A DNA stretch of 64,000 bases from Patescibacteria group bacterium (GTDB lineage Bacteria; Patescibacteriota; Minisyncoccia; Phycocordibacterales; SIBU01): assembly GCA_040390045.1 (NCBI GenBank), contig JAZJZC010000002.1, positions 37,113-101,112 on the forward strand, written 5' to 3'. The notes beneath the pieces are model-generated. The model saw nothing but the letters and a program-made list of their open reading frames with translations. It was not told where the DNA came from and ran no database searches. A program made the position numbers and the translations under genes. Shown one piece after another: positions 5,652-41,475 of the stretch (its first letter is position 1; every line of letters starts with the position of its first letter).

Positions 5652-5654
5652 GAA

Positions 5655-6626: not shown

Positions 6627-6816
6627 GCTGATTCTCCCACGCGTTGATTTTCAGAGTCTATCCACCCGGGTAGACTTTTTCTTTGACTTTTTTCACGGGG
6701 TTTGCTACTCTTCTTCAACTGTTATCCCAGTAGCAGAAATCAGAATTTCGCTACGGGACATGCCTACGGATGTTATTCAGGCACAGGAACCAACAGCCTT
6801 GAGCTGTGTTCATAAA

Positions 6817-7434: not shown

Positions 7435-7518
7435 AAGTTATCAAGTTCGTCAAGTTTATCAAGTCAGAGAAAACTTTATGAACTTTACAAACTTTAAGAA
7501 CTTGATGAACTAAATCAC

Positions 7519-8178: not shown

Positions 8179-8189
8179 TTACTATTCCA

Positions 8190-8588: not shown

Positions 8589-8660
8589 GAAGGGTATAGG
8601 GGTAAGGGTTTAGTCTAAATTCGGAAAACTAAAACCTAAACCCTCCACCCTAAACCCTAG
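8588..8660 (+). repeat. second copy of the CCCTAAA-arm hairpin element
   Basis: aagaagggtataggggtaagggt...aaattcggaaaact...aaaacctaaaccctccaccctaaaccct. Confidence 0.6.
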
Positions 8661-8665
8661 ATTTT

Positions 8666-9520: not shown

Positions 9521-9550
9521 AAAATAGTTGGTAGTTTTTAGAAAAGATAA

Positions 9551-9583
9551 AATCCCCCGAATCGCGAAGCGATTCGGGGGATT
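9551..9583. terminator. terminator hairpin after rplB
   Basis: aatcccccgaatcgcgaagcgattcgggggatt. Confidence 0.65.
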
Positions 9584-9591
9584 GCGTTTTG

Positions 9592-9774
9592 CTAACTGAA
9601 GGGGTGCTTTAAGTGTTCAAACACTTTATAAGTTTTCCACCACATCGGTAATTTTTGCAGTAGAAAAATGAGGCAACCCACCAATGCGATCACAGCTACT
9701 ATTGCAAAACTGTCTAAGAATTCCTCAGTACGTTTTTTCATAGAGGCATGAGCTTTATAACTACCTACAACCAT
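9592..9774 (-). CDS. small hypothetical membrane protein (antisense insert between rplB and rpsS)
   Basis: 60-aa ORF with one TM helix (AIVAVIALVGCLIFLL). Flanked by hairpins. Confidence 0.3.
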   Translation of the reverse strand: MVVGSYKAHASMKKRTEEFLDSFAIVAVIALVGCLIFLLQKLPMWWKTYKVFEHLKHPFS

Positions 9775-9856
9775 AGCACAAGCACTTCAAGATCAAAAGG
9801 ATTTGGTTTTAAGAAAAATCCCGATTCGCATACGTGTAACCGTTGGCGAATCGAGA

Positions 9857-10087
9857 TCAGGTTTTTGAAAAATATCGGCAGGCAAAAGCGATAGGGAAGA
9901 ATAAGATTACGAGGCCGAGGCCAAAAATTTCCTCAAAGGGAGTTTGGAAGAACTGAAAATAGGCTTGGCACTTCCACCGGAAAAGAAACAAGCCCGCTAG
10001 AAGACAGAAGCTTAAAAGCCCCATTCCGAGAGAAATTGTGCTCAAGCCTCGGAGGACGAAAGGTTTATTCATCGTAGAATCTTTCAC
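9857..10087 (-). CDS. small hypothetical membrane protein
   Basis: 76-aa ORF with two hydrophobic segments. Followed by the hairpin cgattcgc..gcgaatcg at 9815-9860. Confidence 0.35.
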   Translation of the reverse strand: MKDSTMNKPFVLRGLSTISLGMGLLSFCLLAGLFLFRWKCQAYFQFFQTPFEEIFGLGLVILFFPIAFACRYFSKT

Positions 10088-10211
10088 TATTCTTGACCCA
10101 CCTTAGTGTTTAGGGCCCTAAGAGTCAAGCCTCGGTTGACTTTATTGTTCCTTCTGTTAGGATAGTAGCCACGCTCTTAACGGGGCTTGTTTAATTTTAA
10201 GCCAGCATTTA

Positions 10212-10553
10212 ATGACCCGATCAGTTGCAAAAGGACCATACGTTGACCCGCGTCTTCTCAAAAAGATTGCCGGAAAAAGACCAGAACAATCTGCGCCTAT
10301 TAAAACGTGGTCACGAGACAGTCAGATCGCTCCTGAAATGGTAGGTTTTAAATTTTTAGTGCACAACGGTAAGGATCACCCAGAAGTTTTTGTAACAGAA
10401 GACATGGTAGGACATCGACTAGGTGAATTTTCATTAACTCGCAAGTTTATTAAGCACGGAGGTAAGATGCAGAAAGATATTGAAACCAAAGCCAAAGAAG
10501 GTGAGGTTGCTGCCGCTCAAGCCGCTAAAGCTGCCGTTGCTGATAAGAAATAA
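10212..10553 (+). CDS. rpsS: 30S ribosomal protein S19 with an Ala/Lys-rich C-terminal tail
   Basis: [43 protein letters not shown]. Confidence 0.9.
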
Positions 10554-10558
10554 TTTTT

Positions 10559-10960
10559 ATGATTACCGCGCAACTCAACACATACAGACAATCCCCTCGA
10601 AAAGTTCGATTGGTTTCTGATTTGGTAAAAGGCAAAGGTGTTGTTGAAGCACTTCTACTCTTGTCTGTCACGACAAAAGAGGCGGCTGGCCCACTCCACA
10701 AGTTGATTACCAGCGCGGTGAAGAACGCTAAGAACTCTTTTAATATCGAAGAAAAAAATTTGTTTGTAAAAGAATTTCGTGTTGATGCCGGAGCGGTTTT
10801 GAAACGAAGTATGCCAAGAGCTCGCGGAAGCGCGTTTCCAATTTTGAAACGAACGAGCCATATTAAGCTTGTTCTTGGGGAACGAGAAGGAGGCGAAAAA
10901 TTGAAAACGAAAAGTGTAAAACACACAGAGGATTCAAAGAAAGAGAAGCACAATCATTAA
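10559..10960 (+). CDS. rplV: 50S ribosomal protein L22
   Basis: SPRKVRLVSDLVKGKGVVEALLLL...AVKNA. Confidence 0.9.
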   Translation: MITAQLNTYRQSPRKVRLVSDLVKGKGVVEALLLLSVTTKEAAGPLHKLITSAVKNAKNSFNIEEKNLFVKEFRVDAGAVLKRSMPRARGSAFPILKRTSHIKLVLGEREGGEKLKTKSVKHTEDSKKEKHNH

Positions 10961-10995
10961 TTTTAAATTTTTCATTTTTACTTTTACATTATTTT

Positions 10996-11661
10996 ATGTC
11001 CCACACCGTTCACCCATACTCACATAGACTTGGAATCATCCGCGACTGGAAAAGCCGCTGGTTTTCTCTTGATAGTAAGTACAAAGAATTTCTCCGTTGC
11101 GACATTACGGTTCGAGAATTTTTGGAAAAACGATTGCGTGGTATGTATGTCAGTGGCGTAGATCTTGAACGAAGTCAAAAAACTTTTCGAGTTGTTATTA
11201 AAACCTCACGCCCAGGTATGATCATCGGCAAGAGTGGGGAAGGCTCGGTCAAACTGAGAAATGAAATTCTTAAAGTGTTGCATCGCGCCAAAGTTTTGAC
11301 GACCCAAGAATTGAAGCTTGATATTGAAGAAGTTCGCTCTCCAGAATCCAATTCCGCTATTGTCGCTCAGATGGTTGCCGAAGGCTTGGAAAAGCGTATG
11401 CCATTCCGCCGCGTGATGAAGCAAACCATTGAAAAAGTGATGGCCAACCGCGACGTCAAAGGAGTCAAAATTTATCTCGGAGGCCGTTTGGGAGGAGCTG
11501 ATATGGCGCGTTCAGAAGAATTGAAAAAAGGTCAGATTCCACTCCAGACTTTCCGCGCCGACATTGATTTCGCTCGTGAGAAAGCCCACATGACATACGG
11601 AGACATCGGAATTAAAGTTTGGATTTACAAAGGGGAAGTTTTTGATAAGGAGAAGAAATAG
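10996..11661 (+). CDS. rpsC: 30S ribosomal protein S3
   Basis: KH and S3-C domains (IGKSGEG..., YLGGRLGGADMARSE). Confidence 0.92.
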   Translation: MSHTVHPYSHRLGIIRDWKSRWFSLDSKYKEFLRCDITVREFLEKRLRGMYVSGVDLERSQKTFRVVIKTSRPGMIIGKSGEGSVKLRNEILKVLHRAKVLTTQELKLDIEEVRSPESNSAIVAQMVAEGLEKRMPFRRVMKQTIEKVMANRDVKGVKIYLGGRLGGADMARSEELKKGQIPLQTFRADIDFAREKAHMTYGDIGIKVWIYKGEVFDKEKK

Positions 11662-11663
11662 TA

Positions 11664-11740
11664 AGAAGGGTATAGGGGTTAGGGTATAATCTGAAAATTT
11701 CAGAAAACTCAACCCTAAACCCTCCACCCTAAACCCTACA
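11664..11740 (+). repeat. third copy of the CCCTAAA-arm hairpin element
   Basis: gtaagaagggtataggggttagggt...aaatttcagaaaactc...aaccctaaaccctccaccctaaaccct. Confidence 0.6.
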
Positions 11741-11743
11741 TTT

Positions 11744-12166
11744 ATGTTGTTACCAAAAAAAGTTAAATACAGAAAGTGGCATACCAGCCGACGCAACGAT
11801 AAGCGTCCGTGGGTTGAAACTCGTGGCACCGAACTCTCTTTCGGTTCTTTCGGTTTGAAAGCCATGTCTTCATTCCGTGTTGAATCAAAACAACTTGAGG
11901 CCGCTCGAAAAGTTTTGGCTCGTTCTGCGGGCAAAGCCGGCAAGATTTGGATCCGCATTTTCCCTGACCGACCGTTTACACAAAAGGCTGCTGAAGTAGG
12001 AATGGGTAAGGGGAAAGGAGATCCCCAAGGTTACTGTGTACAAGTTAAACCAGGAAGAATGATTTTTGAACTTGATGGAGTAGAAAGTGTTGGCGCAAAA
12101 GAGGCGCTCCGCAAGGCTGGTACCAAATTGCCACTCAAAACCAAAATTATCAGTCGAGAAGCATAA
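11744..12166 (+). CDS. rplP: 50S ribosomal protein L16
   Basis: MLLPKKVKYRKWHTSRRNDKRPWVETRGTELSFGSFGLKA. Confidence 0.92.
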   Translation: MLLPKKVKYRKWHTSRRNDKRPWVETRGTELSFGSFGLKAMSSFRVESKQLEAARKVLARSAGKAGKIWIRIFPDRPFTQKAAEVGMGKGKGDPQGYCVQVKPGRMIFELDGVESVGAKEALRKAGTKLPLKTKIISREA

Positions 12167-12170
12167 TCCC

Positions 12171-12356
12171 ATGAAAGAATTTAAAGGAAAACCGGCTGAT
12201 GAGTTGGAAAAAATTTTGGCAGAGAAACGTGAGGCGCTTCGAGTTTTTCGTTTTGAGGCTGCAAGTGGCAAAAATAAGAATGTGAAAGCGGGAAGAGAAT
12301 TGCGAACCAGTATTGCCCAGATTTTAACCGAGATGCGTTCTCAGAAAGTTAATTAA
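12171..12356 (+). CDS. rpmC: 50S ribosomal protein L29
   Basis: MKEFKGKPADELEKILAEKREALRVFRFEAASGKNKNVKAGRELRTSIAQILT. Internal ATG of ORF 12087-12356. Confidence 0.85.
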   Translation: MKEFKGKPADELEKILAEKREALRVFRFEAASGKNKNVKAGRELRTSIAQILTEMRSQKVN

Positions 12357-12419
12357 TCAAGCCCGATAGACAACAGTATCTTTTTAGGTTAGTATCACTT
12401 TTCAATAACAAGCATTACG

Positions 12420-12674
12420 ATGAAACAAGCCAACGAACAACAGAAAAAAACAGGTGGAAAAATGCTCCGAGGCAAGGTGGTTTCAGTGAAAATGAAAGAC
12501 ACCATTGTTGTTGCCGTTGATAGTTTTGTAAAACACCCAAAATACGAGAAATACATTCAGATCACCAAGAGATACAAGGCTCATGATGTCGGTAATACCA
12601 AAGCGCTCGGGGAGGTTATCGACATTGTCGAATGTAGGCCCTTGTCGAAAGATAAACATTTTAAAGTAGCATAA
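12420..12674 (+). CDS. rpsQ: 30S ribosomal protein S17
   Basis: LRGKVVSVKMKDTIVVAVDSFVKHPKYEKYIQITKRYKAHD. Confidence 0.88.
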   Translation: MKQANEQQKKTGGKMLRGKVVSVKMKDTIVVAVDSFVKHPKYEKYIQITKRYKAHDVGNTKALGEVIDIVECRPLSKDKHFKVA

Positions 12675-12678
12675 AACC

Positions 12679-13050
12679 ATGATTCAGCCACGATCAATTG
12701 TCACCATCGCTGATAACTCCGGAGCAAAAGTCGGAAGAATTTTTAAAGTGCTTGGAGGTTCAATGAAACACTACGCAGAACTCGGCGAGATCGTCGTGCT
12801 TTCAGTGCAAAAAGCTGAACCTCGAAAATCTGTCAAGAAGAAAGATGTGCTTCACGCGGTGGTAGTCAGACAGAGAAAAGCCTACCGACGTAAAGACGGT
12901 TCATACATCCGTTTTGACGAAAACGCCGTGGTGATTTTGGAAAAAGGAAAGAAAGAGCCGATTGCTGGTCGCGTGTTCGGTCCAATCCCACGTGAAATTG
13001 CCGATGCTGGTTTCCAGACTATCGCTTCACGGGCGCCGGAAATAGTCTAA
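12679..13050 (+). CDS. rplN: 50S ribosomal protein L14
   Basis: MIQPRSIVTIADNSGAKVGRIFKVLGG. Confidence 0.95.
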   Translation: MIQPRSIVTIADNSGAKVGRIFKVLGGSMKHYAELGEIVVLSVQKAEPRKSVKKKDVLHAVVVRQRKAYRRKDGSYIRFDENAVVILEKGKKEPIAGRVFGPIPREIADAGFQTIASRAPEIV

Positions 13051-13094
13051 GAAGCTGTAAGCTGACAGCTAATAGCTTTAAGCTTTTAAATTCA

Positions 13095-13400
13095 ATGAAA
13101 ATTAAACAAAAAGACAACGTAATCATAATTGCTGGCAAAGATAAGGGTAAAACCGGCAAGATTACCCGTGTGTTTCCAAAGAAAGACATGGTTTTGATTG
13201 CAGGATTTAATCTCAAGAAAAAACACCAGCGCGCTCGAAAATCTGGTGAGAAAGGACAGATTATTGACCGACCAATGCCGATTCATGTTTCCAACGTCAT
13301 GATTGTTGATCCAGATACCGCAAGGCCTGTTAAGACTGGCCGCAAGCTTGTCGGTGAACGATTTGTCAGAATTAACAGAAAGAGTGGGAAGGAGATTTAG
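13095..13400 (+). CDS. rplX: 50S ribosomal protein L24
   Basis: MKIKQKDNVIIIAGKDKGKTGKITRVFPKKDMVLIAGFNL. Confidence 0.9.
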   Translation: MKIKQKDNVIIIAGKDKGKTGKITRVFPKKDMVLIAGFNLKKKHQRARKSGEKGQIIDRPMPIHVSNVMIVDPDTARPVKTGRKLVGERFVRINRKSGKEI

Positions 13401-13443
13401 GAAGCTTTAAGCTTGTAGCTTACAGCTGTAAGCTTTAAATAAA

Positions 13444-13992
13444 ATGAAAACAACACGAGAAAAAGAAAAAGAAATATTCGGATCTCTCAAACAAGAGTTT
13501 GGTTATACAAACATCATGCAAGTTCCTCGACTCGTGAAAATCATGCTCTCCTCAGGCATCGGTTCTTTTAAAGATAAGAAAAAAATTGAAATTGTGAAGG
13601 ATCGTTTGGCAAAAATTTCCGGCCAGAAACTTTCAGTCAAGGGTGCCAAAAAATCTATAGCATCTTTTAAAGTTCGCCAAAATGATCCTGTCGGAACTCA
13701 GACCACCCTTCGCGGCGCTCGCATGTACGATTTCTTGGACAAGCTTCTCAACATCGCTCTTCCTCGAACCAAAGACTTTCGTGGGCTCACCAAATCTTCA
13801 ATCGATGAAATGGGAAACATCAGTATTGGTCTGAAAGAACACACTATTTTTCCTGAAACTACTGACGAAGAATTGAAAGATGTGTTCGGTATTGGCGTCA
13901 CTGTCGTTACCACTGCTAAAAATAAGAAGGAGGCAGCGGTATTCTTTGAGAAGCTAGGCTTTCCATTTAAGAAAGACGAAAAGGCAAAATAA
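13444..13992 (+). CDS. rplE: 50S ribosomal protein L5
   Basis: MQVPRLVKIMLSSGIG...GNISIGLKEHTIFPE. Confidence 0.92.
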   Translation: MKTTREKEKEIFGSLKQEFGYTNIMQVPRLVKIMLSSGIGSFKDKKKIEIVKDRLAKISGQKLSVKGAKKSIASFKVRQNDPVGTQTTLRGARMYDFLDKLLNIALPRTKDFRGLTKSSIDEMGNISIGLKEHTIFPETTDEELKDVFGIGVTVVTTAKNKKEAAVFFEKLGFPFKKDEKAK

Positions 13993-22071: not shown

Positions 22072-22989
22072 ATGGAGAATCAAGAAGAACAGCTCAAATT
22101 AAAAATTCAAGAACTTCTTGGTGAAGAAATTGCAGACTTCTCGTTAAAAGGAAAAGGCTACTGCAACGATGTCTATTACGCTCGAACTCGCAAGAGCGCC
22201 AAATATAGTATCAAAAAAGAAAGAACTGACGCCGGGGCTTCCAAGCAAGAAAACGATCTTTCTGTTGAAGCTGCTCTATTGCGATTATTACAAAATCTCG
22301 ACTTATCTATCCCTACGCCACGGGTGATTTTTGTTTCTGAGAATCCTAAAATGTTTGCCTATGAATACATCGAGGGCGAAATGCTTTTGGGTTTATGGTC
22401 ACTTTTTTCAGAGGAAGAAAAGATCAACACCTGTCGCGCGTTAGGATTTTTTCACGCAGAACTTGGCAAGAAAGTTACCAAGGAGATGCTGGAGCCAATG
22501 AATATCCAGATCAATATGTCTTCCGACCTTCACCCTGAAGTTTCTGCTGATTTTGGTCGATTGATTCTCGACCCCGATGTCCCTGAGGAATTTAAAATTC
22601 TGGCGAAGGAGGCCAAAGTGATTTTCGACAGGACTCAAGATAAACAATTCTTTCAGTTTCTTCATAATGATTCACACCACGAAAATATTCTCATTAAAGA
22701 AAAAAAAATTTCCGGAATTATTGATTTTGGCGCCGCAGAATTTGGCGAGGTGGCCAAAGAATTTTCTCGATACATCAGGGATTTCCCGGATTATTTCCAA
22801 TACATCGTTTCTGCCTACGAAGAAAAATCCGGTAACAAACTTTCCTACGAGCGACTTGTCAGTTTTGCTTTTTTGAACGATTTTGTGGATGTAATTGCAA
22901 ACCACAGGAAAGGAGCTGTCGATCGAATAAAAGCAGAAAGTTCTTTGGCTACTTACCAAAGATTGTTGCACCGAGGTGTTGTTAATTAG
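22072..22989 (+). CDS. aminoglycoside-phosphotransferase (APH)/choline-kinase-family protein kinase-like enzyme
   Basis: Catalytic loop HNDSHHENILI and IIDFGAAEFG (DFG-like). Confidence 0.65.
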   Translation: MENQEEQLKLKIQELLGEEIADFSLKGKGYCNDVYYARTRKSAKYSIKKERTDAGASKQENDLSVEAALLRLLQNLDLSIPTPRVIFVSENPKMFAYEYIEGEMLLGLWSLFSEEEKINTCRALGFFHAELGKKVTKEMLEPMNIQINMSSDLHPEVSADFGRLILDPDVPEEFKILAKEAKVIFDRTQDKQFFQFLHNDSHHENILIKEKKISGIIDFGAAEFGEVAKEFSRYIRDFPDYFQYIVSAYEEKSGNKLSYERLVSFAFLNDFVDVIANHRKGAVDRIKAESSLATYQRLLHRGVVN

Positions 22990-24546: not shown

Positions 24547-24584
24547 AAAACGCCCCAATCTGCCGCCGCGGATTGGGGCGTTTT
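24547..24584. terminator. terminator hairpin
   Basis: aaaacgccccaatctgccgccgcggattggggcgtttt. Confidence 0.65.
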
Positions 24585-24626
24585 CACTATCACTATCTTC
24601 AGAAAATAGGGTATAATTTCTCCTAT

Positions 24627-27386
24627 ATGGAAAATCGATCTCTGGGCGTTGAGACCAAACAGTTTAGTTCTCCTGAAGATGAACTGAAATTTTTGCGTGA
24701 GGAAGTTTCTCGGCATCAAGTTGAAGCCAAAAAAGTTGGAACAGAACAAGCTCCTGATGTGGCTGCGAGTAGGGTACTTAAAGAATATGCCGCCAAACCT
24801 GTAGAAAAAGTGTTAGCACCTAATTATGCTTTGGAGCAGGTGCACAAGGAAGCCATTGTTCTCGAACTTTCTCCGGAAGAGCATGATAAAAAAATTGAAG
24901 AACTGATTGCTGTGCTTGAAGAGAAAGGCATAAAAAACACTCTGAGTATTATTCAAAAACTCGGGGATTTTCACCTGGAAGATGATTTTCATCGATTTTT
25001 AGTTCAGTATGTTAAAGCAGGGTTTGTGATCAAAGGTTTGCAGGAAAAAACCCCGCTTGCAAAGGCTTTTCATAGCACGCTCTATGAAATCAGTTTGCCT
25101 GAACTTTCAAAAGAAGATGGAGAAAAAGAATTAAAGGACCTGATTGCTGGCATGGAGCAATTTTACGCCGGCATGATGAGCGTTTCGCCTGACGGCAAAT
25201 CGAACAGTGACTCATTCAGTGTGGAAATTGCTAATGCCAACGGTAGTGAAGAATTTATTTTTTATGTTTCAGTGCCCGATAGTAAGCGCGCGCTTTTTGA
25301 AAAGCAGATTATGTCGATTTTTCATAACGCTAAAATCAAGGAAGCCAAAAATGATTATAATATATTTAATGAATCCGGTGTTTCGATTGCTTCACAGGCA
25401 TATTCTGGAAGAAAGCCGGTGTTTCCACTTAAAACTTATGAGGAATTTACTGTTGATCCTCTAAACGTACTGCTCAACGGTTTTTCAAAAATCAAAAAGC
25501 ATGGTGAAGGCGCCGCAGTGCAAATGGTTTTTCGCCCAGCTCCACACATGTACCTCGAAAAATATCGAGAAGCTTTGCAGAAATTACAGAAAGGTTCATC
25601 GGTTTCGCGTGCCACCGACATTCGCATGACTATCTTCGGCGCTATTATGAAGGAGGCTAAAGATATCATTACCAATCGAGACGCCAAACAGCTGAAGAAA
25701 AAGGAAAACCGCTCAACTAACCCGCAACTCGATGATGTGGCAATTGAACAGGTGAAGAATAAAGTGAGCAGTCCGATGCTTTTGACTTCGATTCGGGTTG
25801 TCGCCTCGGCAGAAAATGACGCTCGAGCCGAAGCTATTTTGAGTGATCTTGAAGCGGCATTCAATCAATTTGAAAACACTCACGGTAATAAACTTTCTTT
25901 CAGACAGATTAAAAATAAATCGAAGCTCACGGAATTTTTGCACGCTTTTTCTTTTAGAATTTTTGGAGACGATGATGCCGTGCCACTTAATCTCAAAGAG
26001 GTGACGACCATGATGCACTTCCCGTCGAGTCGTATCCAGTCGAGTCCGCAGTTAAAACATGCGAAAGCAGGCTCAGCCGCCGCGCCGCTCGACCTCCCAC
26101 ACGAAGGAGTGATACTGGGCGTCAACCGCGACCGCTCGGTTGAGACTAAGGTGTTCATGACCAAGGAAGATCGTTTACGTCATTTTTACGTCATTGGGCA
26201 AACCGGAACTGGTAAAACCACGCTTTTGAAAAACATGATCGTGCAGGATATTCAAAATGGGGAAGGGGTTTGTATGATTGATCCCCACGGCGCCGATATT
26301 CAGGATATTTTGGCTTCTATTCCGCCGAACCGCTACGAAGATTTAATTTACTTTGATCCGAGCAACACCGCGCGTCCGATGGCGCTTAACATGCTTGAGT
26401 ACGATTTGAGATTTCCTGAACAGAAAACCTTCGTGGTCAACGAAATGTTAAGCATTTTCAATAAACTGTTTGATATGAAAACGGCGGGAGGTCCGATGTT
26501 CGAACAGTATTTCCGCAACGCCGTTCTCTTAACGATTGAAGACCCAGAGTCAGGCAACACCCTTCTCGATGTTTCTCGCGTGCTTGCCAACAAAACCTTT
26601 CGTGAAATGAAATTGGCCAAGTGTAATAATCCAATCGTTACCCAGTTTTGGCGCGAAGTGGCGGATAAAGCGGGTGGGGAAGCGTCACTGGCCAACATCG
26701 TGCCCTACATCGTTTCCAAATTCGACAACTTTTTGGCGAACGACATCATGCGTCCGATTATCGCCCAAGAAAAATCCAGTTTCAATTTCCGCGAAATTAT
26801 GGATAACAAAAAAATTCTTTTGGTTAATTTGGCCAAAGGCAGACTGGGAGATATCAACGCCAACCTCATTGGTCTTATTTTAGTCGGCAAGATTTTAATG
26901 GCGGCGTTGTCGCGGGTTGATTCATACGGAAAAGATTTGCCGCCGTTTTATCTCTATATCGACGAATTCCAAAATATTACGACTGATTCAATTGCCACGA
27001 TTCTTTCCGAGGCTCGCAAGTACAAACTCTCGCTTCATGTCGCTCACCAGTTCATCGCCCAACTTGAGGATGAGATTAAAGACGCAGTGTTTGGCAACGT
27101 CGGTTCTTTGGCCGTGTTTCGGGTTGGATCTGAGGACGCGGAATTTTTGGCTAAACAGTTGGAACCGGTTTTTACAGAGCACGATATCGTCAATTTGGAC
27201 AACCGCAATGCGTATTTGAAACTTTTGGTAAATGGACGTCCTGTGAAGCCCTTCAATATTGAAACCATGGCGCCGCCAGTCGGCAATCGAGATAACATCG
27301 AGAAACTGAAAGAACTTTCCTATTTGAAATTCGGCCGCGATCGAGAAGAGGTAGAAGCGGAGATTATGAAAAAATACCAAAAGTAG
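24627..27386 (+). CDS. large P-loop ATPase of the VirB4/VirD4 (TraC/TraG/HerA-FtsK) clade, type IV secretion-like
   Basis: Walker A HFYVIGQTGTGKTTLLKNMI. Walker B FYLYIDEFQNI followed by ARKYKLSLHVAHQFIAQL (TraG/VirD4-like RK..hQs..Ql). About 480-aa N-terminal domain of unknown function. Start at the ATG at 24627 within ORF 24573-27386. Confidence 0.65.
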   Translation: MENRSLGVETKQFSSPEDELKFLREEVSRHQVEAKKVGTEQAPDVAASRVLKEYAAKPVEKVLAPNYALEQVHKEAIVLELSPEEHDKKIEELIAVLEEKGIKNTLSIIQKLGDFHLEDDFHRFLVQYVKAGFVIKGLQEKTPLAKAFHSTLYEISLPELSKEDGEKELKDLIAGMEQFYAGMMSVSPDGKSNSDSFSVEIANANGSEEFIFYVSVPDSKRALFEKQIMSIFHNAKIKEAKNDYNIFNESGVSIASQAYSGRKPVFPLKTYEEFTVDPLNVLLNGFSKIKKHGEGAAVQMVFRPAPHMYLEKYREALQKLQKGSSVSRATDIRMTIFGAIMKEAKDIITNRDAKQLKKKENRSTNPQLDDVAIEQVKNKVSSPMLLTSIRVVASAENDARAEAILSDLEAAFNQFENTHGNKLSFRQIKNKSKLTEFLHAFSFRIFGDDDAVPLNLKEVTTMMHFPSSRIQSSPQLKHAKAGSAAAPLDLPHEGVILGVNRDRSVETKVFMTKEDRLRHFYVIGQTGTGKTTLLKNMIVQDIQNGEGVCMIDPHGADIQDILASIPPNRYEDLIYFDPSNTARPMALNMLEYDLRFPEQKTFVVNEMLSIFNKLFDMKTAGGPMFEQYFRNAVLLTIEDPESGNTLLDVSRVLANKTFREMKLAKCNNPIVTQFWREVADKAGGEASLANIVPYIVSKFDNFLANDIMRPIIAQEKSSFNFREIMDNKKILLVNLAKGRLGDINANLIGLILVGKILMAALSRVDSYGKDLPPFYLYIDEFQNITTDSIATILSEARKYKLSLHVAHQFIAQLEDEIKDAVFGNVGSLAVFRVGSEDAEFLAKQLEPVFTEHDIVNLDNRNAYLKLLVNGRPVKPFNIETMAPPVGNRDNIEKLKELSYLKFGRDREEVEAEIMKKYQK

Positions 27387-35588: not shown

Positions 35589-35828
35589 TTGCACATGAAA
35601 GTAATCAAGTCTAAAAGCAACATCGTGGGTCTTAAAGAGCTACGAAATAATATTGAAACCTATATTAAAAAGGTTGATAAAGGTGAATCGTTCACCGTGG
35701 TTCGTCGTTCCTCGCCAGTGTTTAAAGTTTCTCCAGTAGATGATGAAAATTTGTGGGAAGAAGTTATTGATTTTACGAAATTAAAGAAAGGCGGGGTAGA
35801 AATTGGCGAAATGATTTCACGTCTCTAA
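35589..35828 (+). CDS. type II antitoxin, Phd/YefM family
   Basis: LKELRNNIETYIKKVDKGESFTVVRRSSPVFKV has the Phd/YefM pattern. Confidence 0.6.
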   Translation: MHMKVIKSKSNIVGLKELRNNIETYIKKVDKGESFTVVRRSSPVFKVSPVDDENLWEEVIDFTKLKKGGVEIGEMISRL

Positions 35829-35832
35829 TTCT

Positions 35833-36075
35833 ATGGATAGAATTAACAAGGAGTTACGGAAACTTTCTGAAAAAGAACGAGCGTTCGTCAAAGAAATTTT
35901 ACAGAAAATTCAAAAGGGAAATACCACTAGTCTCGATATTAAAAAGTTAAAAGGCCGGACGGATATATTTCGAGTTCGAAAAGGTACAGTACGGATTATC
36001 TATCAGAAAACAGAGAGCGGTATATTTATTCTTGCTCTCGAACGTCGCAATGAAAGCACTTATAGAGATTTTTAG
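35833..36075 (+). CDS. type II toxin, RelE/ParE family
   Basis: IFRVRKGTVRIIYQKTESGIFILALERRNESTYR resembles the RelE C-terminal core. Starts 4 nt after the antitoxin gene. Confidence 0.65.
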   Translation: MDRINKELRKLSEKERAFVKEILQKIQKGNTTSLDIKKLKGRTDIFRVRKGTVRIIYQKTESGIFILALERRNESTYRDF

Positions 36076-36098: not shown

Positions 36099-37328
36099 AT
36101 GAGCGGAGCATCTATTACAAAAAACAAAAATTATTGTCCCGATTGTGGCACTGCACCACTCAATCATTTTGCCTCACGAACCACTATTGGTTTGGGATTT
36201 TTAATAAAAGTTATTACTACTCCTTTAGGAAAACTTGAGGATATTGTAGTTGATATTGTTTTTCCGAAATTGGAAATGATTATGCCGGCGATTTTCCGAG
36301 TGCTTTCGTGGGTGCATTTGGTTCGCATTACTGATGTACTAGAAGACGACAATATCGATCGAACAAAATGTTTGTGGAAGGCAGCCGAAGCTCGGGGAAT
36401 CAAGATGCGCCAGTTTAGAATTTTAAATCGCCCGAGCATTCTTTTTATTGCTGAATTTAAAGGAGAAAAAGTTTTGTTTGAAGGATTGCCTCGACCAAAA
36501 AAAGATTCTCGGGCTGCGCTTGAGTGGATGGATAACAAGGTCACTATGAAAAAGAAATTTCGAGCCGGAGGCATTCCAGTTGCCAATGGCGGAGTAGCGA
36601 TGACCGAACGCGGCGCTTTGAAACTTTTTCATACACTCAATCATCCGGTAATCACTAAACCAAACCTCGGATCTCGCAGTCGTCATACGACGACGCACAT
36701 TTCCACAGAAACAGAGCTTCTCAAGGCTTTCCGAAAAGCTCGACAGTTGTCACCCTGGGTTGTCATTGAAGAAGAATTACAAGGTTTTGTCTTTCGCATT
36801 ACGTTGATCGGCGGCAAACTTGCAGGCGCACTCAGGCGTGAGCCACCATTTGTAATAGGAGACGGTGTTACCCCTGTCCGCGCACTAGTTGAAAAGGAAA
36901 ATGCTAATCCAAAACGACACAACTGGGTTTTTCATGAAATTGCGTTGGACAAAGAGGCCGAGGAAGAACTGACTCGACAAAATTTATCCTGGACTGCAAT
37001 TCCAGAGAAAGGACGTTTTGTGACGTTGAATCAAAAAGTAGGAAGAGGTCAGGGTGGATCCAATACTGAGATGCTTCCCAAGGTTCATCCGGAAAATGTA
37101 AAAATTTTCGAAAAGCTGGCGCGGGTGCTCGACAACTCCCTTGTAGGAGTGGATTTCATTATGCAAGACATTGAAAAGCCGTGGACAGAACAGAAGCTCG
37201 TTGGTGCAATCGAGTGCAATAGTTTGCCGTTTCTCGATTTGCACCATATGCCGCTCTACGGGGAGCCCCTCGACCCTTCGTCGGCTCTCTGGGACGTCGT
37301 ATTTCCAAACTCTCACAAAATACGTTAG
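36099..37328 (+). CDS. ATP-grasp family ligase/kinase (RimK/CphA-N-like)
   Basis: VITKPNLGSRSRHTTTHISTETELLKAF, GGKLAGALRREPPFVIGDG, and NSLVGVDFIM are typical ATP-grasp nucleotide-binding elements. Confidence 0.65.
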   Translation: MSGASITKNKNYCPDCGTAPLNHFASRTTIGLGFLIKVITTPLGKLEDIVVDIVFPKLEMIMPAIFRVLSWVHLVRITDVLEDDNIDRTKCLWKAAEARGIKMRQFRILNRPSILFIAEFKGEKVLFEGLPRPKKDSRAALEWMDNKVTMKKKFRAGGIPVANGGVAMTERGALKLFHTLNHPVITKPNLGSRSRHTTTHISTETELLKAFRKARQLSPWVVIEEELQGFVFRITLIGGKLAGALRREPPFVIGDGVTPVRALVEKENANPKRHNWVFHEIALDKEAEEELTRQNLSWTAIPEKGRFVTLNQKVGRGQGGSNTEMLPKVHPENVKIFEKLARVLDNSLVGVDFIMQDIEKPWTEQKLVGAIECNSLPFLDLHHMPLYGEPLDPSSALWDVVFPNSHKIR

Positions 37329-37338
37329 TATCCGCTAT

Positions 37339-38835
37339 ATGGACAATCATTATTTTCACACCGAACTTGTTAAAGTCGGGAAGTGGCCACTTCTGCCGCT
37401 TGATTGTGATACTTGGTTTTCCCAAGAAGTCTCGGACAATTTCAAAAAAATTTTTGGAATACCAAAAGGTTTTTTGTGGATTAATACACTTGAAGATGGT
37501 TATTTGCATGACTATGTACCGCTCTCCTATTTCAGATTGCTGTATTCAACAATTGACGCAATCAAAAAGAAAAATTACAAAGGTCTCGAAAAAAAGATTC
37601 GCGTAGTTTATGGTTTAAAAAAGATGGCAAAGAAAAGTTTGCCAAAAGTTAACCCAAGAAATCTTTCAGAAATTTCGAACGAAGGTCTTATTAAGGCATA
37701 TACAAAGAACCGTTCAATTGTTCATGAGCTAACAGTATTCGACCAGTTTGGTTTTCTCGGAGAGGAATATTGGACGCCACACATGGAAAGTATTCTAATC
37801 AAAAAGCTCGGTCTTGCGAAAGATTCTGTTGAATACCATCGAGTTATTTTTGCTTTGACCAAGCCCGAAGAAATTTCCACAACACTTGAAGAGAAACGAG
37901 CAGTTTTAGGTGAGGCTTTGAAAATTAAGAAGGGCAAAACTTCTGTTGAGAGTGCATCAGAAAAATTATCACAAAATTTTGGTTGGATGCCGGTTTTTAC
38001 GTTTGGAACTGCTTGGGATTCAGCATGGTATAAAAAGGAACTTACTGACGTTTTGAAAAAGGAACAGGATGTTCTGGAGCAAGAATTTGCCGAACTTAAA
38101 AATTATTCAAAATCACGAAATGCCGAGATTAAAAAAATCGTAAAACAGTACAATCTTTCAAAAGAAGATCTTCAGGTCTTTGTTGATTTTGGTTTAGCGC
38201 TCGATGGCAGAAATGAAGCTGAATACATCGTTAGTTTGGCTGGGTTTTATTTGATGCCTGTCTACACTGAGATAGGGGGGCGACTACAAATTCCAGTTAA
38301 TGATTTAAGAAAATTTTACGAGACCGACGTGGTCAATTGTCTTTTAGGAAAGGCTGTGCCTGTGGAAGTTCTTGTTTCGAAAGGAAATATTGTGGCAGTT
38401 GGCACTGATGAAAGTGTTGAACGCCGTATCAATTTTTCTCCCGCTGAGGCACGGGCTCTTTTCGAGCACATGGAAAAAAATGCCAAGAACGCCCAAGGTA
38501 ACAATGAATTTAAAGGTGTCTGCGCTAGCACAGGAACTGCGGTTGGTATCGCGCGCATCGTTCATTCTCCGAGTGAAAACAACAAAGTACAAGAAGGTGA
38601 CATTTTAATTACGCATGCCACGACTGTTGACTATCTTCCCGCCATGAAAAAAGCAGCCGCGATTGTTACCGAAGTTGGGGGATTAACCTGTCACGCCGCT
38701 GTAGTCTCACGTGAATTTAAAATTCCGTGCGTCGTCGCGCTTAAAAATGCTACGACCAATTTTAAGGATGGAGATATGATTGAGGTACTGGCCGATCGTG
38801 GTATGGTTACGGTCGTTAAAAGAGCAAATATATAG
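37339..38835 (+). CDS. protein with a C-terminal PEP-utilizing enzyme mobile (phosphohistidine swivel) domain, paralog 1
   Basis: C-terminus GVCASTGTAVGIARIVHSP...GDILITHATTVDYLPAMKKAAAIVTEVGGLTCHAAVVSREFKIPCVV matches the PEP-utilizers swivel domain with the catalytic His in TCHAA. Start at the ATG at 37339 within ORF 37171-38835. Confidence 0.7.
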   Translation: MDNHYFHTELVKVGKWPLLPLDCDTWFSQEVSDNFKKIFGIPKGFLWINTLEDGYLHDYVPLSYFRLLYSTIDAIKKKNYKGLEKKIRVVYGLKKMAKKSLPKVNPRNLSEISNEGLIKAYTKNRSIVHELTVFDQFGFLGEEYWTPHMESILIKKLGLAKDSVEYHRVIFALTKPEEISTTLEEKRAVLGEALKIKKGKTSVESASEKLSQNFGWMPVFTFGTAWDSAWYKKELTDVLKKEQDVLEQEFAELKNYSKSRNAEIKKIVKQYNLSKEDLQVFVDFGLALDGRNEAEYIVSLAGFYLMPVYTEIGGRLQIPVNDLRKFYETDVVNCLLGKAVPVEVLVSKGNIVAVGTDESVERRINFSPAEARALFEHMEKNAKNAQGNNEFKGVCASTGTAVGIARIVHSPSENNKVQEGDILITHATTVDYLPAMKKAAAIVTEVGGLTCHAAVVSREFKIPCVVALKNATTNFKDGDMIEVLADRGMVTVVKRANI

Positions 38836-38857
38836 TTATGTTAAGTTTAGTATTACT

Positions 38858-38995
38858 GTGGAACTAGGTCCTGAGATCAGCAGATCGAAGGGCAAGATCG
38901 TGGTATGGTTAGGGTAGTTGAAAAAGCAAAAAGATAGTATTTAAAATCTTTAGTGTAAATATGGAACTATGTCCTGAGACCACCAGGTCGAAGGG
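38858..38995 (+). repeat. two tandem copies of a 40-nt repeat (tggaactaggtcctgagaccagcaggtcgaagggcaag) that can encode MELGPETSRSKGK...
   Basis: Copies at 38858 and 38952. Copy 1 also duplicates the 3' end of the upstream gene. A third copy is at 41432. Confidence 0.45.
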
Positions 38996-39092
38996 CAAGA
39001 TAAGGGGCTTGTACGAAAAGTTATGTAATTCTCAAGATTTTTAAAAAAATAAAAACGGAACAAGTAGTTCCGTTTTGTGAGACAGTGATCAG

Positions 39093-39710
39093 TTAATCAT
39101 AGAGAGCCAGGTGAGCAGTCCCGTTGTGGCCGATGAAAAAGCTACCACCTTCTCCGACTTCTCGGCCGAGACAAATTTCTTCGGCTTTCGATCCACCACC
39201 AACGAGAGTCGCAAGGTAGAGAGCCACGAAGTTGATGAGTGGCCCGTGCGTGAAGAACAGGGCTTTTGAATTCCTGTCGAGCTCCCTAACAGAGTCGGCG
39301 ATTTTTTCGGCGGCACTTTTGCCGAGTCGAGAAAGCGCCTTTCGCACGTCGTTGTTGCTCAGGTACTTTCCCAGCTCGTTGCCGTACTCATACCAAGCCC
39401 AGCGGATGAGCCGGCCGTCTCGTGTGTCACCCGGGTAGAGCTGGGGGACAATGATGGGTGAGTTACAAAACTCGTTACCTAGCGTCGCAAATAGGAGCGA
39501 CTGTCGGGCGCGGTAGGCGGGGGAAGAGCCTTGCACGACGATACTCCCTTTGCCCGCATCGCCATGAATCCTGGTTTCCAGATTTTCCCGAAACGCCATC
39601 GCTTGCTTTCCGGATGCCTCCAGGTTGAGTGGTCGGTCGAGATCCACCGCGCCAGGCAACGCCTTAAAGTGGCGTGCAACAATTACGTTGCATAAGATAT
39701 GTGTGCTCAT
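39093..39710 (-). CDS. histidine phosphatase superfamily protein (SixA/phosphoglycerate-mutase-like), GC-rich
   Basis: N-terminal RHFKA (RHG-like) and distal THGPLINF His motif. Start at the ATG at 39710 within ORF 39093-39767. Confidence 0.6.
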   Translation of the reverse strand: MSTHILCNVIVARHFKALPGAVDLDRPLNLEASGKQAMAFRENLETRIHGDAGKGSIVVQGSSPAYRARQSLLFATLGNEFCNSPIIVPQLYPGDTRDGRLIRWAWYEYGNELGKYLSNNDVRKALSRLGKSAAEKIADSVRELDRNSKALFFTHGPLINFVALYLATLVGGGSKAEEICLGREVGEGGSFFIGHNGTAHLALYD

Positions 39711-39836
39711 GTTTATTTTGTTTTCGAAGCTAATCAGGACACTAGCATATTTATAGTCTTTCGTCAAGGATTGTAGTTGAGTTACACCTATACCCTTATA
39801 TGATATTCTTGACCTATCTTATTACAATAAATTTCT

Positions 39837-41402
39837 ATGAATCCTACTATTTTAGAAAAAATAAAAAGTTTGCATTGGATAAATGCTTGGGCGGGGAACT
39901 GGCCCCATCTGGATACGTTAGTTTTGCGCGGGGAAGCTTACGAAAAAGAGGCTGTAAAAATTTGCGGTCTATCATTACGACTTATTGAAATAATTTTGAC
40001 ACAAGATGGTATTGTCACTTTCTACCGAGCGGCTGAATGCTACGAGGCTATCGATAAAGATCTTCTAAAAAAATTCGAGGACGACCCTGGTTTTATAAAA
40101 AATTCCGCTACAGGATATAGCAAGCGCGTAGCCAGTGATGTCCGCGAACTTCAGAAAATTAAAAAAATAAAAAATCTTGCCAAACTTTCAAATTCGGAAT
40201 TGGCGGAATTGTTTGAAAAAGCCCGCAGACATTTCGAATACAATGGCATGATCGATATTTATGACTGGTATGTTGAAAAATTGTTTACGCCGGTTCTTGA
40301 AAAGATTTTGACAGAACGTCTGACAAAAATGGGGAAGGGTAATCTTGTTTCAGAATATATTTCAACCTTGGTTATTCCACATAAAATATCGGTGATTTTT
40401 AAAGAACGACAGCAATTGTTTGCGATTATAAAATATATTCGGGTGCACGAACCTTTACTGGCTTTAATAAAATCTGGCGCTGCATATACGGAAGCTTTGG
40501 GTGCAGACACTCAGTTTGCCAAGTTGTTTAAAGCCTATTTCCGAAAGTATCAATGGATGCCAGTTCTCGTGAACAATCCACCGCATACACTCGAAACAGT
40601 CTTTAAAGAAATTACTGATTTTGTAATACCTGACGCACCACTTGAAATAAAAACCAAAAGACTTGGCGATAATCATGATGAGGTGGCAATTGAAAAGTCT
40701 CACGGGTATTTGAAGGAACTCAGACTTTCTCGCCGCGAGAAGTTGCTTGTCCTAGGGTTACGAGCTATGGCTTTTCTTCGGACCGAGGATTACTGGGTGA
40801 TGAGCAAGTCTTCGTTTTTGGTTATGCCGCTTTATACTGAAGTTGCGAAAAGGCTAGGACTGACATATTCCGAACTCAAGCAATTTTTCCCAAAAGAAAT
40901 TTCAAAACAACTACGCGAGGGTACAAAAATTTCTGCCGATGAAGTACAGAGCCGTTTTAAGTTGAGTGCGTACGTAACTCTTGAAAATGACGAGCAGTTT
41001 TTTACCGGTTCGAATGCTGGTTTAATCAAGGCTGTTGTGGATGAACAGTTAAAAACTAAAAAGCATTCAAGTCAGACTAGCTGGAAGGGCGTTGTGGGAA
41101 ATGGTGGAAGCGTGCGAGGTCTTGTGCGAGTGGCGCTTGATCCAAAAGAGGCGTCGCTTATAAAAGATGGTGAGATTTTGGTGGTTACTGCCACGAGTGC
41201 TGGCTTCGTGCCGTTTCTGAGAAAAGCCGGAGGCATTATTTCTGAGTTTGGTGGACTAACGTCGCACCAAGTCATTGTTGCGCGAGAGTTTGGAGTTCCT
41301 TGTTTGGTTGGAGTTAAGGAAATTACAAAGTATCTTTCGACAGGAGATCGGGTAGAAATAGATGCCGAACGCGGTGAGGTTACTTTAGTAAAAAAAATCT
41401 AA
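39837..41402 (+). CDS. protein with a C-terminal PEP-utilizing enzyme mobile domain, paralog 2
   Basis: C-terminus GVVGNGGSVRGLVRV...GEILVVTATSAGFVPFLRKAGGIISEFGGLTSHQVIVAREFGVPCLV. The N-terminal ~400 aa are of unknown function. Confidence 0.7.
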   Translation: MNPTILEKIKSLHWINAWAGNWPHLDTLVLRGEAYEKEAVKICGLSLRLIEIILTQDGIVTFYRAAECYEAIDKDLLKKFEDDPGFIKNSATGYSKRVASDVRELQKIKKIKNLAKLSNSELAELFEKARRHFEYNGMIDIYDWYVEKLFTPVLEKILTERLTKMGKGNLVSEYISTLVIPHKISVIFKERQQLFAIIKYIRVHEPLLALIKSGAAYTEALGADTQFAKLFKAYFRKYQWMPVLVNNPPHTLETVFKEITDFVIPDAPLEIKTKRLGDNHDEVAIEKSHGYLKELRLSRREKLLVLGLRAMAFLRTEDYWVMSKSSFLVMPLYTEVAKRLGLTYSELKQFFPKEISKQLREGTKISADEVQSRFKLSAYVTLENDEQFFTGSNAGLIKAVVDEQLKTKKHSSQTSWKGVVGNGGSVRGLVRVALDPKEASLIKDGEILVVTATSAGFVPFLRKAGGIISEFGGLTSHQVIVAREFGVPCLVGVKEITKYLSTGDRVEIDAERGEVTLVKKI

Positions 41403-41431
41403 CCTACAATGTTTAAAATTTTAGTATCAAT

Positions 41432-41475
41432 ATGGAACTAGGTCCTGAGACCAGCAGGTCGAAGGGTAGAGAGAG
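41432..41475 (+). repeat. third copy of the MELGPETSRSKG-encoding repeat
   Basis: atggaactaggtcctgagaccagcaggtcgaagggtagagag. The ORF 41432-41707 runs through the terminator and is doubtful as annotated. Confidence 0.45.

Follow-up and report, generated by a model that had tools for sequence, protein, structure and literature searches.

Two paralogous genes, B and D, in a 64,000-nucleotide stretch of patescibacterial DNA (the window) probably each encode the substrate-binding and phosphocarrier subunit of a two-component, ATP-dependent small-molecule dikinase, a reading drawn by analogy with characterized enzymes. They lie in a group of four open reading frames together with a ligase gene, A, and a histidine-phosphatase-family gene, C (Table 1). 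An ORF check of the window found all four exactly where an earlier, sequence-only reading of this DNA had placed them. The reading frame of B is part of a longer frame that opens at 37171, and an alternative opening of the C frame is possible at 39767. Gene C converges on B and diverges from D.

Table 1 Features of the locus, in window coordinates
Feature	Coordinates	Strand	Description
A	36099-37328	+	409 aa, predicted ATP-grasp ligase that stands alone and resembles the G domain of cyanophycin synthetase
B	37339-38835	+	498 aa, probable dikinase module; helical substrate-binding domain of the rifampin phosphotransferase (RPH) type at ~1-385, swivel domain at 418-488
C	39093-39710	-	205 aa, member of histidine-phosphatase superfamily branch 1
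D	39837-41402	+	521 aa, probable dikinase module paralogous to B, same architecture; swivel domain at 442-513
Phd/YefM antitoxin ORF	35589-35828	+	PF02604, E 4.6e-7; TIGR01552, E 2.4e-7
Small ParE/Gp49-like ORF	35833-36075	+	Below threshold, E 0.006-0.008

Both B and D end in a swivel domain, recognized by Pfam as PEP-utilizers (PF00391) with E values of 2.5e-24 and 2.4e-22, respectively. The catalytic histidine is His452 in B, within GGLTCH (codon 38692-38694), and His477 in D, within GGLTSH (codon 41265-41267); the surrounding sequences, TEVGGLTCH and SEFGGLTSH, fit the swivel motif T/SxxGGxxxH. When 25 B orthologues were aligned, the swivel residues G447, L449, T450, C451, H452, A453 and A454 were invariant, as was a set of polar residues in the N-terminal domain (D135-Q136, S180, T182, E185, D289 and R291-N292-E293). 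B and D are true paralogues, as previously claimed: they are 27% identical over 411 amino acids (E 4e-41), and the match extends well into the N-terminal region.

The N-terminal ~400 residues had been described as resembling no known substrate domain. Structural comparison overturned this view, as the region matches the rifampin-binding domain region of RPH, albeit at 19% identity and with the caveat that all-helical domains may align loosely. All other matches to the fold and architecture of B were limited to the ~100-residue swivel domain, and at the sequence level the N-terminal domains of B and D matched known dikinases only just upstream of that domain. The same holds for the NCBIfam models PRK08296 (hypothetical protein, ~600 aa) and RedH, whose similarity to B and D falls only in and just before the swivel domain; RedH aligned with D residues 287-519 and thus reached beyond it. 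In both proteins an RPH-type substrate-binding domain is followed by the swivel domain, and PPDK_N and PEP-utilizers_C are absent. This architecture is that of rifampin phosphotransferase minus its ATP-grasp domain. RPH-Lm (PDB 5FBT and 5HV1) has the same order of substrate domain and C-terminal swivel histidine domain; B and D, which are 15-19% identical to it, lack its ATP-grasp domain, and two fused relatives (P0064 and that of locus L035) show the full RPH order of ATP-grasp, substrate and swivel domains.

We did not assign B and D to RPH proper. The NCBIfam model NF041857 scored 69.9 and 58.5 bits for B and D against a cut-off of 999, and NF000283 scored 52.9 and 48.0 bits against a cut-off of 1700, all far too low and in the swivel domain only. 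It is also highly unlikely that B or D, or both, inactivate antibiotics as phosphotransferases of rifamycin-type resistance. RPH is the closest solved structure, and a resistome survey reported rph-like genes in CPR genomes (PMC8651080), but RPH model scores of 53-70 bits against cut-offs of 999-1700 argue against this role. So does the distribution of the family: B orthologues are conserved at 48-77% identity and often occur in multigene arrays in the genomes of Patescibacteria and DPANN archaea, which fits core or salvage metabolism better. Finally, the invariant residues of the N-terminal domain are mostly polar or charged, whereas rifampin is large and mostly hydrophobic.

The nearest swivel-domain sequence to those of B and D is that of PEP synthase (NF005057, E 2.3e-34; PDB 8a8e, E 1.2e-22), which shares their Thr-Cys/Ser-His triad, and PEP synthase and PPDK carry PPDK_N, which is also the partner domain in relatives of B and D. 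The sequence-only reading had noted truncated PEP synthases as an alternative identity for the two paralogues, and we rejected it on domain order and content: PF00391 stands alone at the C terminus of B and D rather than centrally, PPDK_N and the PEP-utilizers_C TIM barrel are missing, and the N-terminal domain has the RPH-type helical fold. PEP synthase models scored 83-119 bits against cut-offs of 598-740, in the swivel region only. The prodigiosin ligases PigC and RedH combine PPDK_N, a central domain and a C-terminal swivel domain; in contrast, B and D scored 65-84 bits against cut-offs of 1300-1350, have no N-terminal ATP-grasp domain and lie in no pigment-biosynthesis context.

A split architecture like that of B and D is found in HpeHI, CreHI and PpsAB (phenylphosphate synthase; PMC12167813), and by this comparison B and D are probably HpeH/PpsA/CreH-like subunits of two-component small-molecule dikinases. 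HpeH, CreH and PpsA each consist of an RPH-type substrate-binding domain and a C-terminal swivel histidine domain, matching B and D, and the ATP-grasp domain (PPDK_N) is a separate protein, HpeI, CreI or PpsB. The T/SxxGGxxxH motif near the C terminus is common to HpeH-type proteins and our pair. HpeHI was described as a two-component RPH homologue, and mutation of the conserved histidine abolished its activity (PMC12167813). There are also differences. At 498 and 521 aa, both proteins are smaller than HpeH, for which a mass of 71 kDa is given, and the residue two before the histidine is threonine in B, D and PEP synthase but methionine in HpeH and RPH. The hosts of the B/D family are Patescibacteria and DPANN archaea, whereas those of HpeHI, CreHI and PpsAB are degraders of aromatic compounds. 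Unlike these systems, B and D have no nearby partner gene in the window, and their family occurs in arrays of up to 12 modules and in multi-module fusions.

Other genomes point to a PPDK_N protein as the partner of B and D, through its fusion or adjacency to B-type modules. PPDK_N is fused to a B-type module in L022 (853 aa, P0064), L035 (810 aa), L016 (1602 aa) and L041 (1650 aa), and in all four proteins the B-like module directly follows PPDK_N. In L038 and L018 a stand-alone PPDK_N gene is found at a distance of 45-800 nt from B, and in L009, L013, L024 and L026 such a gene is part of the array that includes B. D orthologues adjoin B orthologues in L005 and L035, and in the latter the PPDK_N-B fusion comes first and the D orthologue second. 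Among related loci of Patescibacteria and DPANN archaea, arrays reach 12 modules (12 paralogues in 20 kb), and single open reading frames combine PPDK_N with three modules. B and D belong to an extensive family, so far uncharacterised, that is found in ultra-small bacteria and archaea; our literature search found no paper on swivel-domain gene arrays in CPR or DPANN.

Using the PPDK_N part of P0064 as a tblastn query, we found no PPDK_N gene in the 64-kb window. The ~10 kb past its downstream end contained none either, only pilus and type II secretion genes. B is also solitary, with no PPDK_N within reach, in 16 of the 37 B-orthologue loci. Both observations would suit proteins that work without an ATP-grasp partner, with B and D shuttling phosphate between phosphorylated and unphosphorylated small molecules through the swivel histidine or using another donor, and C acting on the same pool; HpeH by itself transferred phosphate from 4-phosphoacetophenone to acetovanillone (PMC12167813). 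We consider this unlikely, as four independent fusions of B-type modules to PPDK_N argue that these modules were originally, and are still normally, charged with ATP. A solitary B could, moreover, still have a partner acting in trans, since two-component dikinases form no stable complexes (PMC12167813). ATP-dependent dikinase subunits charged by a PPDK_N protein encoded elsewhere remain our preferred account of B and D.

A had been proposed as the phosphodonor of the swivel proteins. It is an ATP-grasp protein, as claimed, but of the ligase type: its sequence places it with carboxylate-amine ligases of the CphA G-domain/GshB type and not with PPDK_N-type ATP-grasp proteins. Residues 89-407 aligned with positions 161-476 of the 862-position model TIGR02068 (E 3.5e-57), corresponding to the ATP-grasp G domain of CphA, CphA2 and GshAB (PDB 7ta5 and 7wac), and the match to CphA2 (7ta5) had an E value of 2.8e-36. 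The nearest relatives of A are the CphA G domain, CphA2, GshAB and N-acetylglutaminylglutamine synthetase, and more than 1,000 homologues of ~400 aa were found. A is not a full cyanophycin synthetase, as only the G domain aligned, at 194 bits against a cut-off of 850; unlike CphA, it stands alone at ~400 aa, lacks the N and M (Mur-ligase-like) domains and has its own ~88-residue N-terminal region with a CPDC motif. Pfam reported no PF01326 match in A, and tblastn with the PPDK_N domain found nothing in it.

The neighbourhood of A tells the same story. A belongs to a conserved backbone, IF3-DsbD-thioredoxin-A...CSD, and of the 37 B-orthologue loci only one has an A orthologue next to B, that of the closest relative (L003). 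There, as in the window, A and B are on the same strand with a gap of 10 nt, and the two are therefore probably co-transcribed in this lineage. Orthologues of A at 74-77% identity keep the backbone with no adjacent swivel gene. Among close orthologues, those in L086 and L087 show IF3-DsbD-thioredoxin and no swivel gene, and in L090, with the same backbone, two opposite-strand genes separate the A orthologue from B. More distant orthologues (L088 and L089) occur in unrelated contexts.

These data bear on a scheme in which A replaces PPDK_N and phosphorylates the swivel histidines of B and D, a SixA-like C dephosphorylates them, and the four genes form a self-contained system. In broad terms ATP-grasp and PPDK_N domains share one fold class, and the tight A-B pair, here and in L003, and the lack of a PPDK_N gene in the window or 10 kb beyond would fit such a scheme. 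We regard it as extremely improbable, because A is closest to carboxylate-amine ligases and has no PF01326 match, its orthologues rarely adjoin B and keep the backbone or lie in unrelated contexts, and the B family has been fused repeatedly to PPDK_N but never to an A-like domain. A is thus ligase-type and not co-conserved with the swivel genes, an outcome that the sequence-only reading had itself named beforehand as telling against its model. Of the split phosphotransfer system that it proposed, B and D survive as modules of a split swivel enzyme, most likely acting on small molecules, and A as phosphodonor does not. We judge that A is outside the phosphotransfer system and that its adjacency to B is local; it appears to act independently, as an amino-acid/carboxylate ligase encoded in the conserved backbone of the chromosome. 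In practice, the four genes should not be treated as one annotation unit: A is a separate ligase, and a PPDK_N gene is the missing piece.

C gave no direct sequence match in Pfam, NCBIfam or PDB, and a word-indexed homologue search returned C alone. An exhaustive HMMER search recovered homologues, which form a family with only 11 cluster representatives among 1.84 billion representative sequences. Compared with PDB, the family profile matched SixA (4hbz, E 6e-8), then PGM, PspA and CobC, and also 2rfl and 1ujb; 7 of 12 family members matched His_Phos_1 (PF00300). An AF2 model of C (pLDDT 89.1) retrieved CobC, dPGM, PhoE and RosC in Foldseek at E ~5e-7, with phosphoserine phosphatase also among the best matches. 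On the basis of the family profile, the His_Phos_1 members and the modelled fold, C is a divergent member of histidine phosphatase superfamily branch 1, in line with its original description. It shares the RH...R...R...H core (Arg13-His14, Arg26, Arg67 and the invariant His155 in the alignment) and a predicted alpha/beta fold with SixA, CobC, PhoE and dPGM.

The proposed link between this phosphatase family and swivel modules also held up. The nine loci that could be retrieved (the window, L003 and L079-L085) all have a swivel gene next to the C homologue or no more than two genes away. The family is missing from the other 76 swivel loci that we examined, so C is not a general component. C-family genes are always GC-rich outliers relative to their own genome.

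C most likely hydrolyses a phosphorylated small molecule, for example the product of a neighbouring module, by analogy with CobC and PhoE, whose cap its helical insert resembles; resetting of phosphohistidine is the less likely role. In the latter case, C would be a SixA-type protein phosphohistidine phosphatase that strips the neighbouring swivel histidine as an off-switch or a brake on futile cycling, which we consider possible but doubtful. The best profile-to-PDB match is a putative SixA (4hbz; also 2rfl and 1ujb), the linkage to swivel genes is complete in the nine loci, and a regulator might well be expected between two swivel genes, converging on one and diverging from the other. However, the SixA match lies mainly over the N-terminal ~70 residues, and, unlike the compact ~160-aa SixA, which has no cap insert, C has 205 aa and a three-helix insert at ~97-140 in the AF2 model. 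Its best fold matches are instead ~200-aa small-molecule phosphatases (CobC, PhoE, RosC and phosphoserine phosphatase). The sequence and fold matches do not settle which of the two roles applies.

The segment had been thought GC-enriched and accessory or horizontally acquired. Its GC content is 0.426 compared with 0.429 for the window (55th percentile of same-size windows), and the surrounding genes are housekeeping ones (EF-Tu, ribosomal proteins, SecY, IF3, FtsH, RecG and tmRNA), and we rejected a horizontally acquired GC-rich island on these grounds. Only C is compositionally odd (GC 0.552, GC3 0.61). Of the toxin-antitoxin pair reported upstream, the Phd/YefM antitoxin barely reached the Pfam threshold (30.0 versus 29.8 bits) and the ParE/Gp49-like frame stayed below it. 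The pair sits between a thioredoxin-like gene and A and is missing at the matching position in the relatives L086, L090 and L003. A search with PADLOC gave no meaningful match to an anti-phage defence system. A 50-nt element with weak folding z-scores lies 3' of B and D, with two copies downstream of B, for which Rfam reported no family, and one downstream of D.

For the catalytic cycle we draw on homology with RPH, PpsAB and HpeHI, added to the domain identities, fold, paralogy, co-occurrence and fusions observed above. A separate PPDK_N-type ATP-grasp protein, assumed to be encoded elsewhere in the genome, would bind ATP. The swivel histidine (His452 of B or His477 of D) would attack the beta-phosphate, and the gamma-phosphate would leave as Pi. 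The swivel domain would then rotate back onto its own N-terminal helical domain and pass the phosphate to a bound small molecule, yielding AMP, Pi and the phosphorylated substrate. As their N-terminal domains have diverged (27% identity overall), B and D probably accept different substrates, and they probably share one ATP-binding partner. C, which is genetically coupled to the swivel modules, may hydrolyse a phosphorylated small molecule.

More tentatively, Patescibacteria and DPANN archaea could have a modular dikinase system, not described before, that includes B and D and in which one PPDK_N protein charges many different modules, each with an RPH-type substrate domain and a swivel domain. 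By phosphorylating a range of scavenged host metabolites, such a system may trap or activate them, with B as the conserved primary module and C-like GC-rich phosphatases as accessories. Although these organisms are host-dependent and their genomes minimal, the B family persists in many of them, in some at a dozen copies. Its retention in minimal genomes at 48-77% identity and in such numbers suggests that it carries out an important kind of phosphorylation that is still uncharacterised. Among two-component relatives, the only ones characterized so far act on phenolic compounds, and it was proposed that they phosphorylate scavenged substrates in order to trap them. Should this trapping logic apply here too, the B and D genes could reveal how ultra-small symbionts acquire metabolites from their hosts.

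The four ORFs that a sequence-only reading of this segment had joined into one phosphotransfer system were all recovered in place: A, an ATP-grasp gene; B and D, which encode swivel-domain proteins; and C, of the histidine-phosphatase family. Twenty-four orthologues have N termini that agree with an ATG at 37339 as the start codon of B. A and B are separated by 10 nt, B and C converge with a spacing of 257 nt, and C and D diverge with a spacing of 126 nt. The window carries housekeeping genes of a Patescibacteria genome (EF-Tu, ribosomal proteins, SecY, Map, L20/L35/IF3, FtsH, RecG and tmRNA). This otherwise housekeeping region also holds a DUF87/TraG-like ATPase and an ORF for an APH-family phosphotransferase (PF01636, E 1.6e-14), and a Phd/YefM antitoxin with a small ParE/Gp49-like ORF lies between a thioredoxin-like gene and A. 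L086, L090 and L003, all syntenic relatives, lack the latter pair at this site, and we therefore regard it as a local insertion. The segment itself, previously thought to be GC-enriched, has a GC content of 0.426 versus 0.429 for the window.

Features of the locus and of related loci in other genomes
Locus	Feature	Position	Strand	Description
Window	APH-family phosphotransferase	22072-22989	+	ORF
Window	DUF87/TraG-like ATPase	24573-27386	+	937 aa
Window	Phd/YefM and ParE/Gp49-like pair	35589-36075		antitoxin and small ORF
Window	A	36099-37328	+	409 aa ORF
Window	B	37339-38835	+	498 aa ORF
Window	Tandem duplication	38794-39001		~102 nt
Window	~50-nt element, first copy	38846-38898	+	3′ of B
Window	~50-nt element, second copy	38949-39001	+	3′ of B
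Window	C	39093-39710	-	205 aa ORF
Window	D	39837-41402	+	521 aa ORF
Window	~50-nt element, third copy	41422-41470	+	3′ of D
L003	C-family gene	8168-8794
L079	C-family gene	1618-2238
L080	C-family gene	1804-2445
L082	C-family gene	1676-2305
L083	C-family gene	1246-1854
L084	C-family gene	44-679
L085	C-family gene	3610-4206
L016	PPDK_N with three modules	9038-13846		1602 aa, single uninterrupted ORF
L041	PPDK_N with three modules	3018-7970		1650 aa, single uninterrupted ORF

In both B and D, Pfam detected the PEP-utilizers swivel domain only, at residues 418-488 of B (E 2.5e-24) and 442-513 of D (E 2.4e-22), with the catalytic histidine at His452 (in GGLTCH) and His477 (in GGLTSH), respectively. 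The two proteins are paralogous, as proposed, and the similarity between them (27% identity over 411 aa, E 4e-41) is not confined to the swivel domain. They diverge most in the first ~110 residues, which, together with their low overall identity, makes different substrates likely. Hundreds of full-length B orthologues (48-77% identity) are present in Patescibacteria, with some assigned to DPANN archaea, and the swivel motif and many polar residues of the N-terminal domain are invariant among them. In the fetched loci, a single N-domain superfamily takes in 178 of the 213 swivel ORFs, and B and D belong to it. Models for PEP synthase, rifampin phosphotransferase (RPH), PigC and RedH all scored far under their cut-offs against B and D. 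The suggestion that the two are truncated PEP synthases was rejected on this score and because the swivel domain is C-terminal and is not accompanied by PEP-utilizers_C.

In other genomes, the partner of the B/D family is a protein with the PPDK_N ATP-binding domain (PF01326). An 853-aa protein from Moranbacteria (P0064) has PPDK_N fused to a B orthologue (49% identity across 99% of B), and locus L035 encodes a similar fusion of 810 aa, with a D orthologue directly after it. Longer polypeptides encoded in L016 and L041 consist of PPDK_N followed by three substrate-domain-plus-swivel modules; each has three PF00391 domains and RPH-type substrate domains, and the first module is B-like. These multi-module dikinase polypeptides come from two unrelated MAGs. 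Stand-alone PPDK_N genes (~310 aa) adjoin B in L038 and L018, and share an array with B in L009, L013, L024 and L026. No PPDK_N was found in the window or in the ~10 kb past its downstream end, and we infer that a PPDK_N partner would act in trans in the source genome.

Swivel modules also occur in tandem arrays that reach 12 per 20 kb (for example, L020 and L044), and 8-12 swivel-domain genes lie in tandem within ~20 kb in L020, L044, L043, L048, L009 and L025. The MAGs with arrays are labelled as Saccharibacteria, Doudnabacteria and Woesearchaeota and, in two cases, as Gammaproteobacteria. Several of the surveyed array loci (for example, L009, L013 and L024) have one PPDK_N gene and others have none within reach; the array of L001 also includes an opposite-strand LMWPc phosphatase gene.

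A had been cast as the phosphodonor of the system. Judged from its sequence, A belongs to the carboxylate-amine ligases among the ATP-grasp proteins. Its residues 89-407 match cyanophycin synthetase over the G domain (positions 161-476 of the 862 in model TIGR02068, E 3.5e-57); lacking the N and M domains, it scores 194 bits, far under the cut-off of 850 bits. Weaker matches were to GshAB, N-acetylglutaminylglutamine synthetase, RimK and Ddl, and the nearest solved structures are 7ta5 (deposited as 'Glutathione synthase', E 2.8e-36, and presumably cyanophycin synthetase 2) and cyanophycin synthases such as 7wac. A Pfam search gave no PPDK_N signal in A. The family contains more than 1000 stand-alone proteins of ~400 aa, and these CphA-G-like ligases are widespread in Patescibacteria. 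The N-terminal ~88 residues (36099-36365) are family-specific, contain hydrophobic stretches and a CPDC motif, and had no match in the libraries searched.

A orthologues at 77% identity (L086 and L087) share the same backbone (L20-L35-IF3-DsbD-thioredoxin...A...CSD...SmpB-sigma70), with no swivel gene at these loci. At 74% identity (L090 and L091), a B orthologue lies past two opposite-strand genes, and relatives at 49-51% identity (L088 and L089) are found in unrelated contexts. An A orthologue adjoins B in only 1 of 37 B-orthologue loci, that of the closest relative L003; in L033, a weak A-like match lies 4 kb from the B orthologue. These neighbourhoods indicate that A is a member of the backbone, and that the genes lying between it and the cold-shock gene, B, C and D, are variable inserts. 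Lack of co-conservation was the outcome that the sequence-only reading had itself named as counting against its scheme, and we judge that A does not belong to the phosphotransfer system. It would instead work elsewhere, ligating an amino acid to a carboxylate. What stands of the proposed four-gene system is B and D as swivel modules and C as a gene linked to them.

C had no direct match in Pfam, NCBIfam, PDB sequence or homologue searches, and an exhaustive HMMER search of 1.84 billion cluster representatives returned ten relatives. Its assignment to the histidine-phosphatase superfamily holds: the alignment core is kept (R13-H14, R26 and R67, with H155 invariant), PF00300 is matched by 7 of 12 family members, and the AF2 model (pLDDT 89) resembles CobC, dPGM, PhoE, RosC and the SixA-like alr0221. 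The family profile best matched the putative SixA 4hbz (E 6e-8), followed by entries for PGM-like proteins, phosphoserine phosphatase and CobC. Removal of phosphate from the swivel phosphohistidine, as by SixA, is the less favoured reading. C is longer than SixA, with three helices inserted around residues 97-140, and its best fold matches are small-molecule phosphatases of ~200 aa; on the basis of these features, we favour a small molecule as its substrate. Linkage between C and swivel genes is strong in one direction only: a swivel-domain gene is adjacent or at most two genes away in all nine retrievable C-family loci (the window, L003 and L079-L085), and the other 76 swivel loci all lack a C-family gene.

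C has a GC content of 0.552 and a GC3 of 0.61, versus 0.35-0.46 for its neighbours. Every retrievable homologue is a GC-rich outlier in its own genome (gene GC 0.52-0.64 versus 0.35-0.53 in the flanks; GC3 0.55-0.71 versus mostly 0.30-0.46), yet the homologues are mutually only ~30% identical in amino acids. The swivel genes that adjoin them are host-like in composition. Repeated transfer, nucleotide-level selection or a mobile cassette are possible explanations.

Each of the three copies of a ~50-nt element in the window lies directly 3′ of the end of a swivel gene. Its core, GGAACTAKGTCCTGAGAYCASCAGRTCGAAGGG, had 3 matches versus 0 expected. The predicted hairpin (CCU-GA-GAYC-loop-GRUC-GA-AGG) includes tandem G.A pairs and shows a single compensatory change in pairing; the z-scores for its folding are weak. 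Neither copy 3′ of B matched an Rfam family, and none of 91 other loci, that of the closest relative among them, carries the element. Small ORFs could also begin in it, with M/V-ELGPE as their first residues. The tandem duplication repeats the final 43 nt of B (38794-38836) at 38896-38938 with 86% identity and a copy of the element after each, so that the spacer between B and C holds a pseudo 3′ end of B.

B and D are probably of a kind already known, the two-component small-molecule dikinase. HpeH is the swivel plus substrate-binding subunit of such a dikinase, HpeHI, the ATP-grasp being a separate protein, HpeI, and RPH was the sole structure that aligned across most of HpeH (PMC12167813). 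The N-terminal regions of B and D likewise match the rifampin-binding part of RPH in fold. The residue two before the catalytic histidine is Thr in the B family, as in PEP synthase, whereas it is Met in HpeH and RPH. We found no paper describing the very large Patescibacteria/DPANN swivel family, its arrays of up to 12 or the polypeptides of PPDK_N and three modules, nor one describing the Thr variant in the B-type family or a linked histidine phosphatase of aberrant composition. On the model of the homologous enzymes RPH, PpsAB and HpeHI, the PPDK_N protein would bind ATP, and the swivel histidine of B or D would attack the beta-phosphate, with the gamma-phosphate released as Pi. The phosphohistidine domain would then swing to its own N-terminal domain and phosphorylate a bound small molecule, and C may hydrolyse a phosphorylated metabolite arising from these reactions or, alternatively, reset the carrier.
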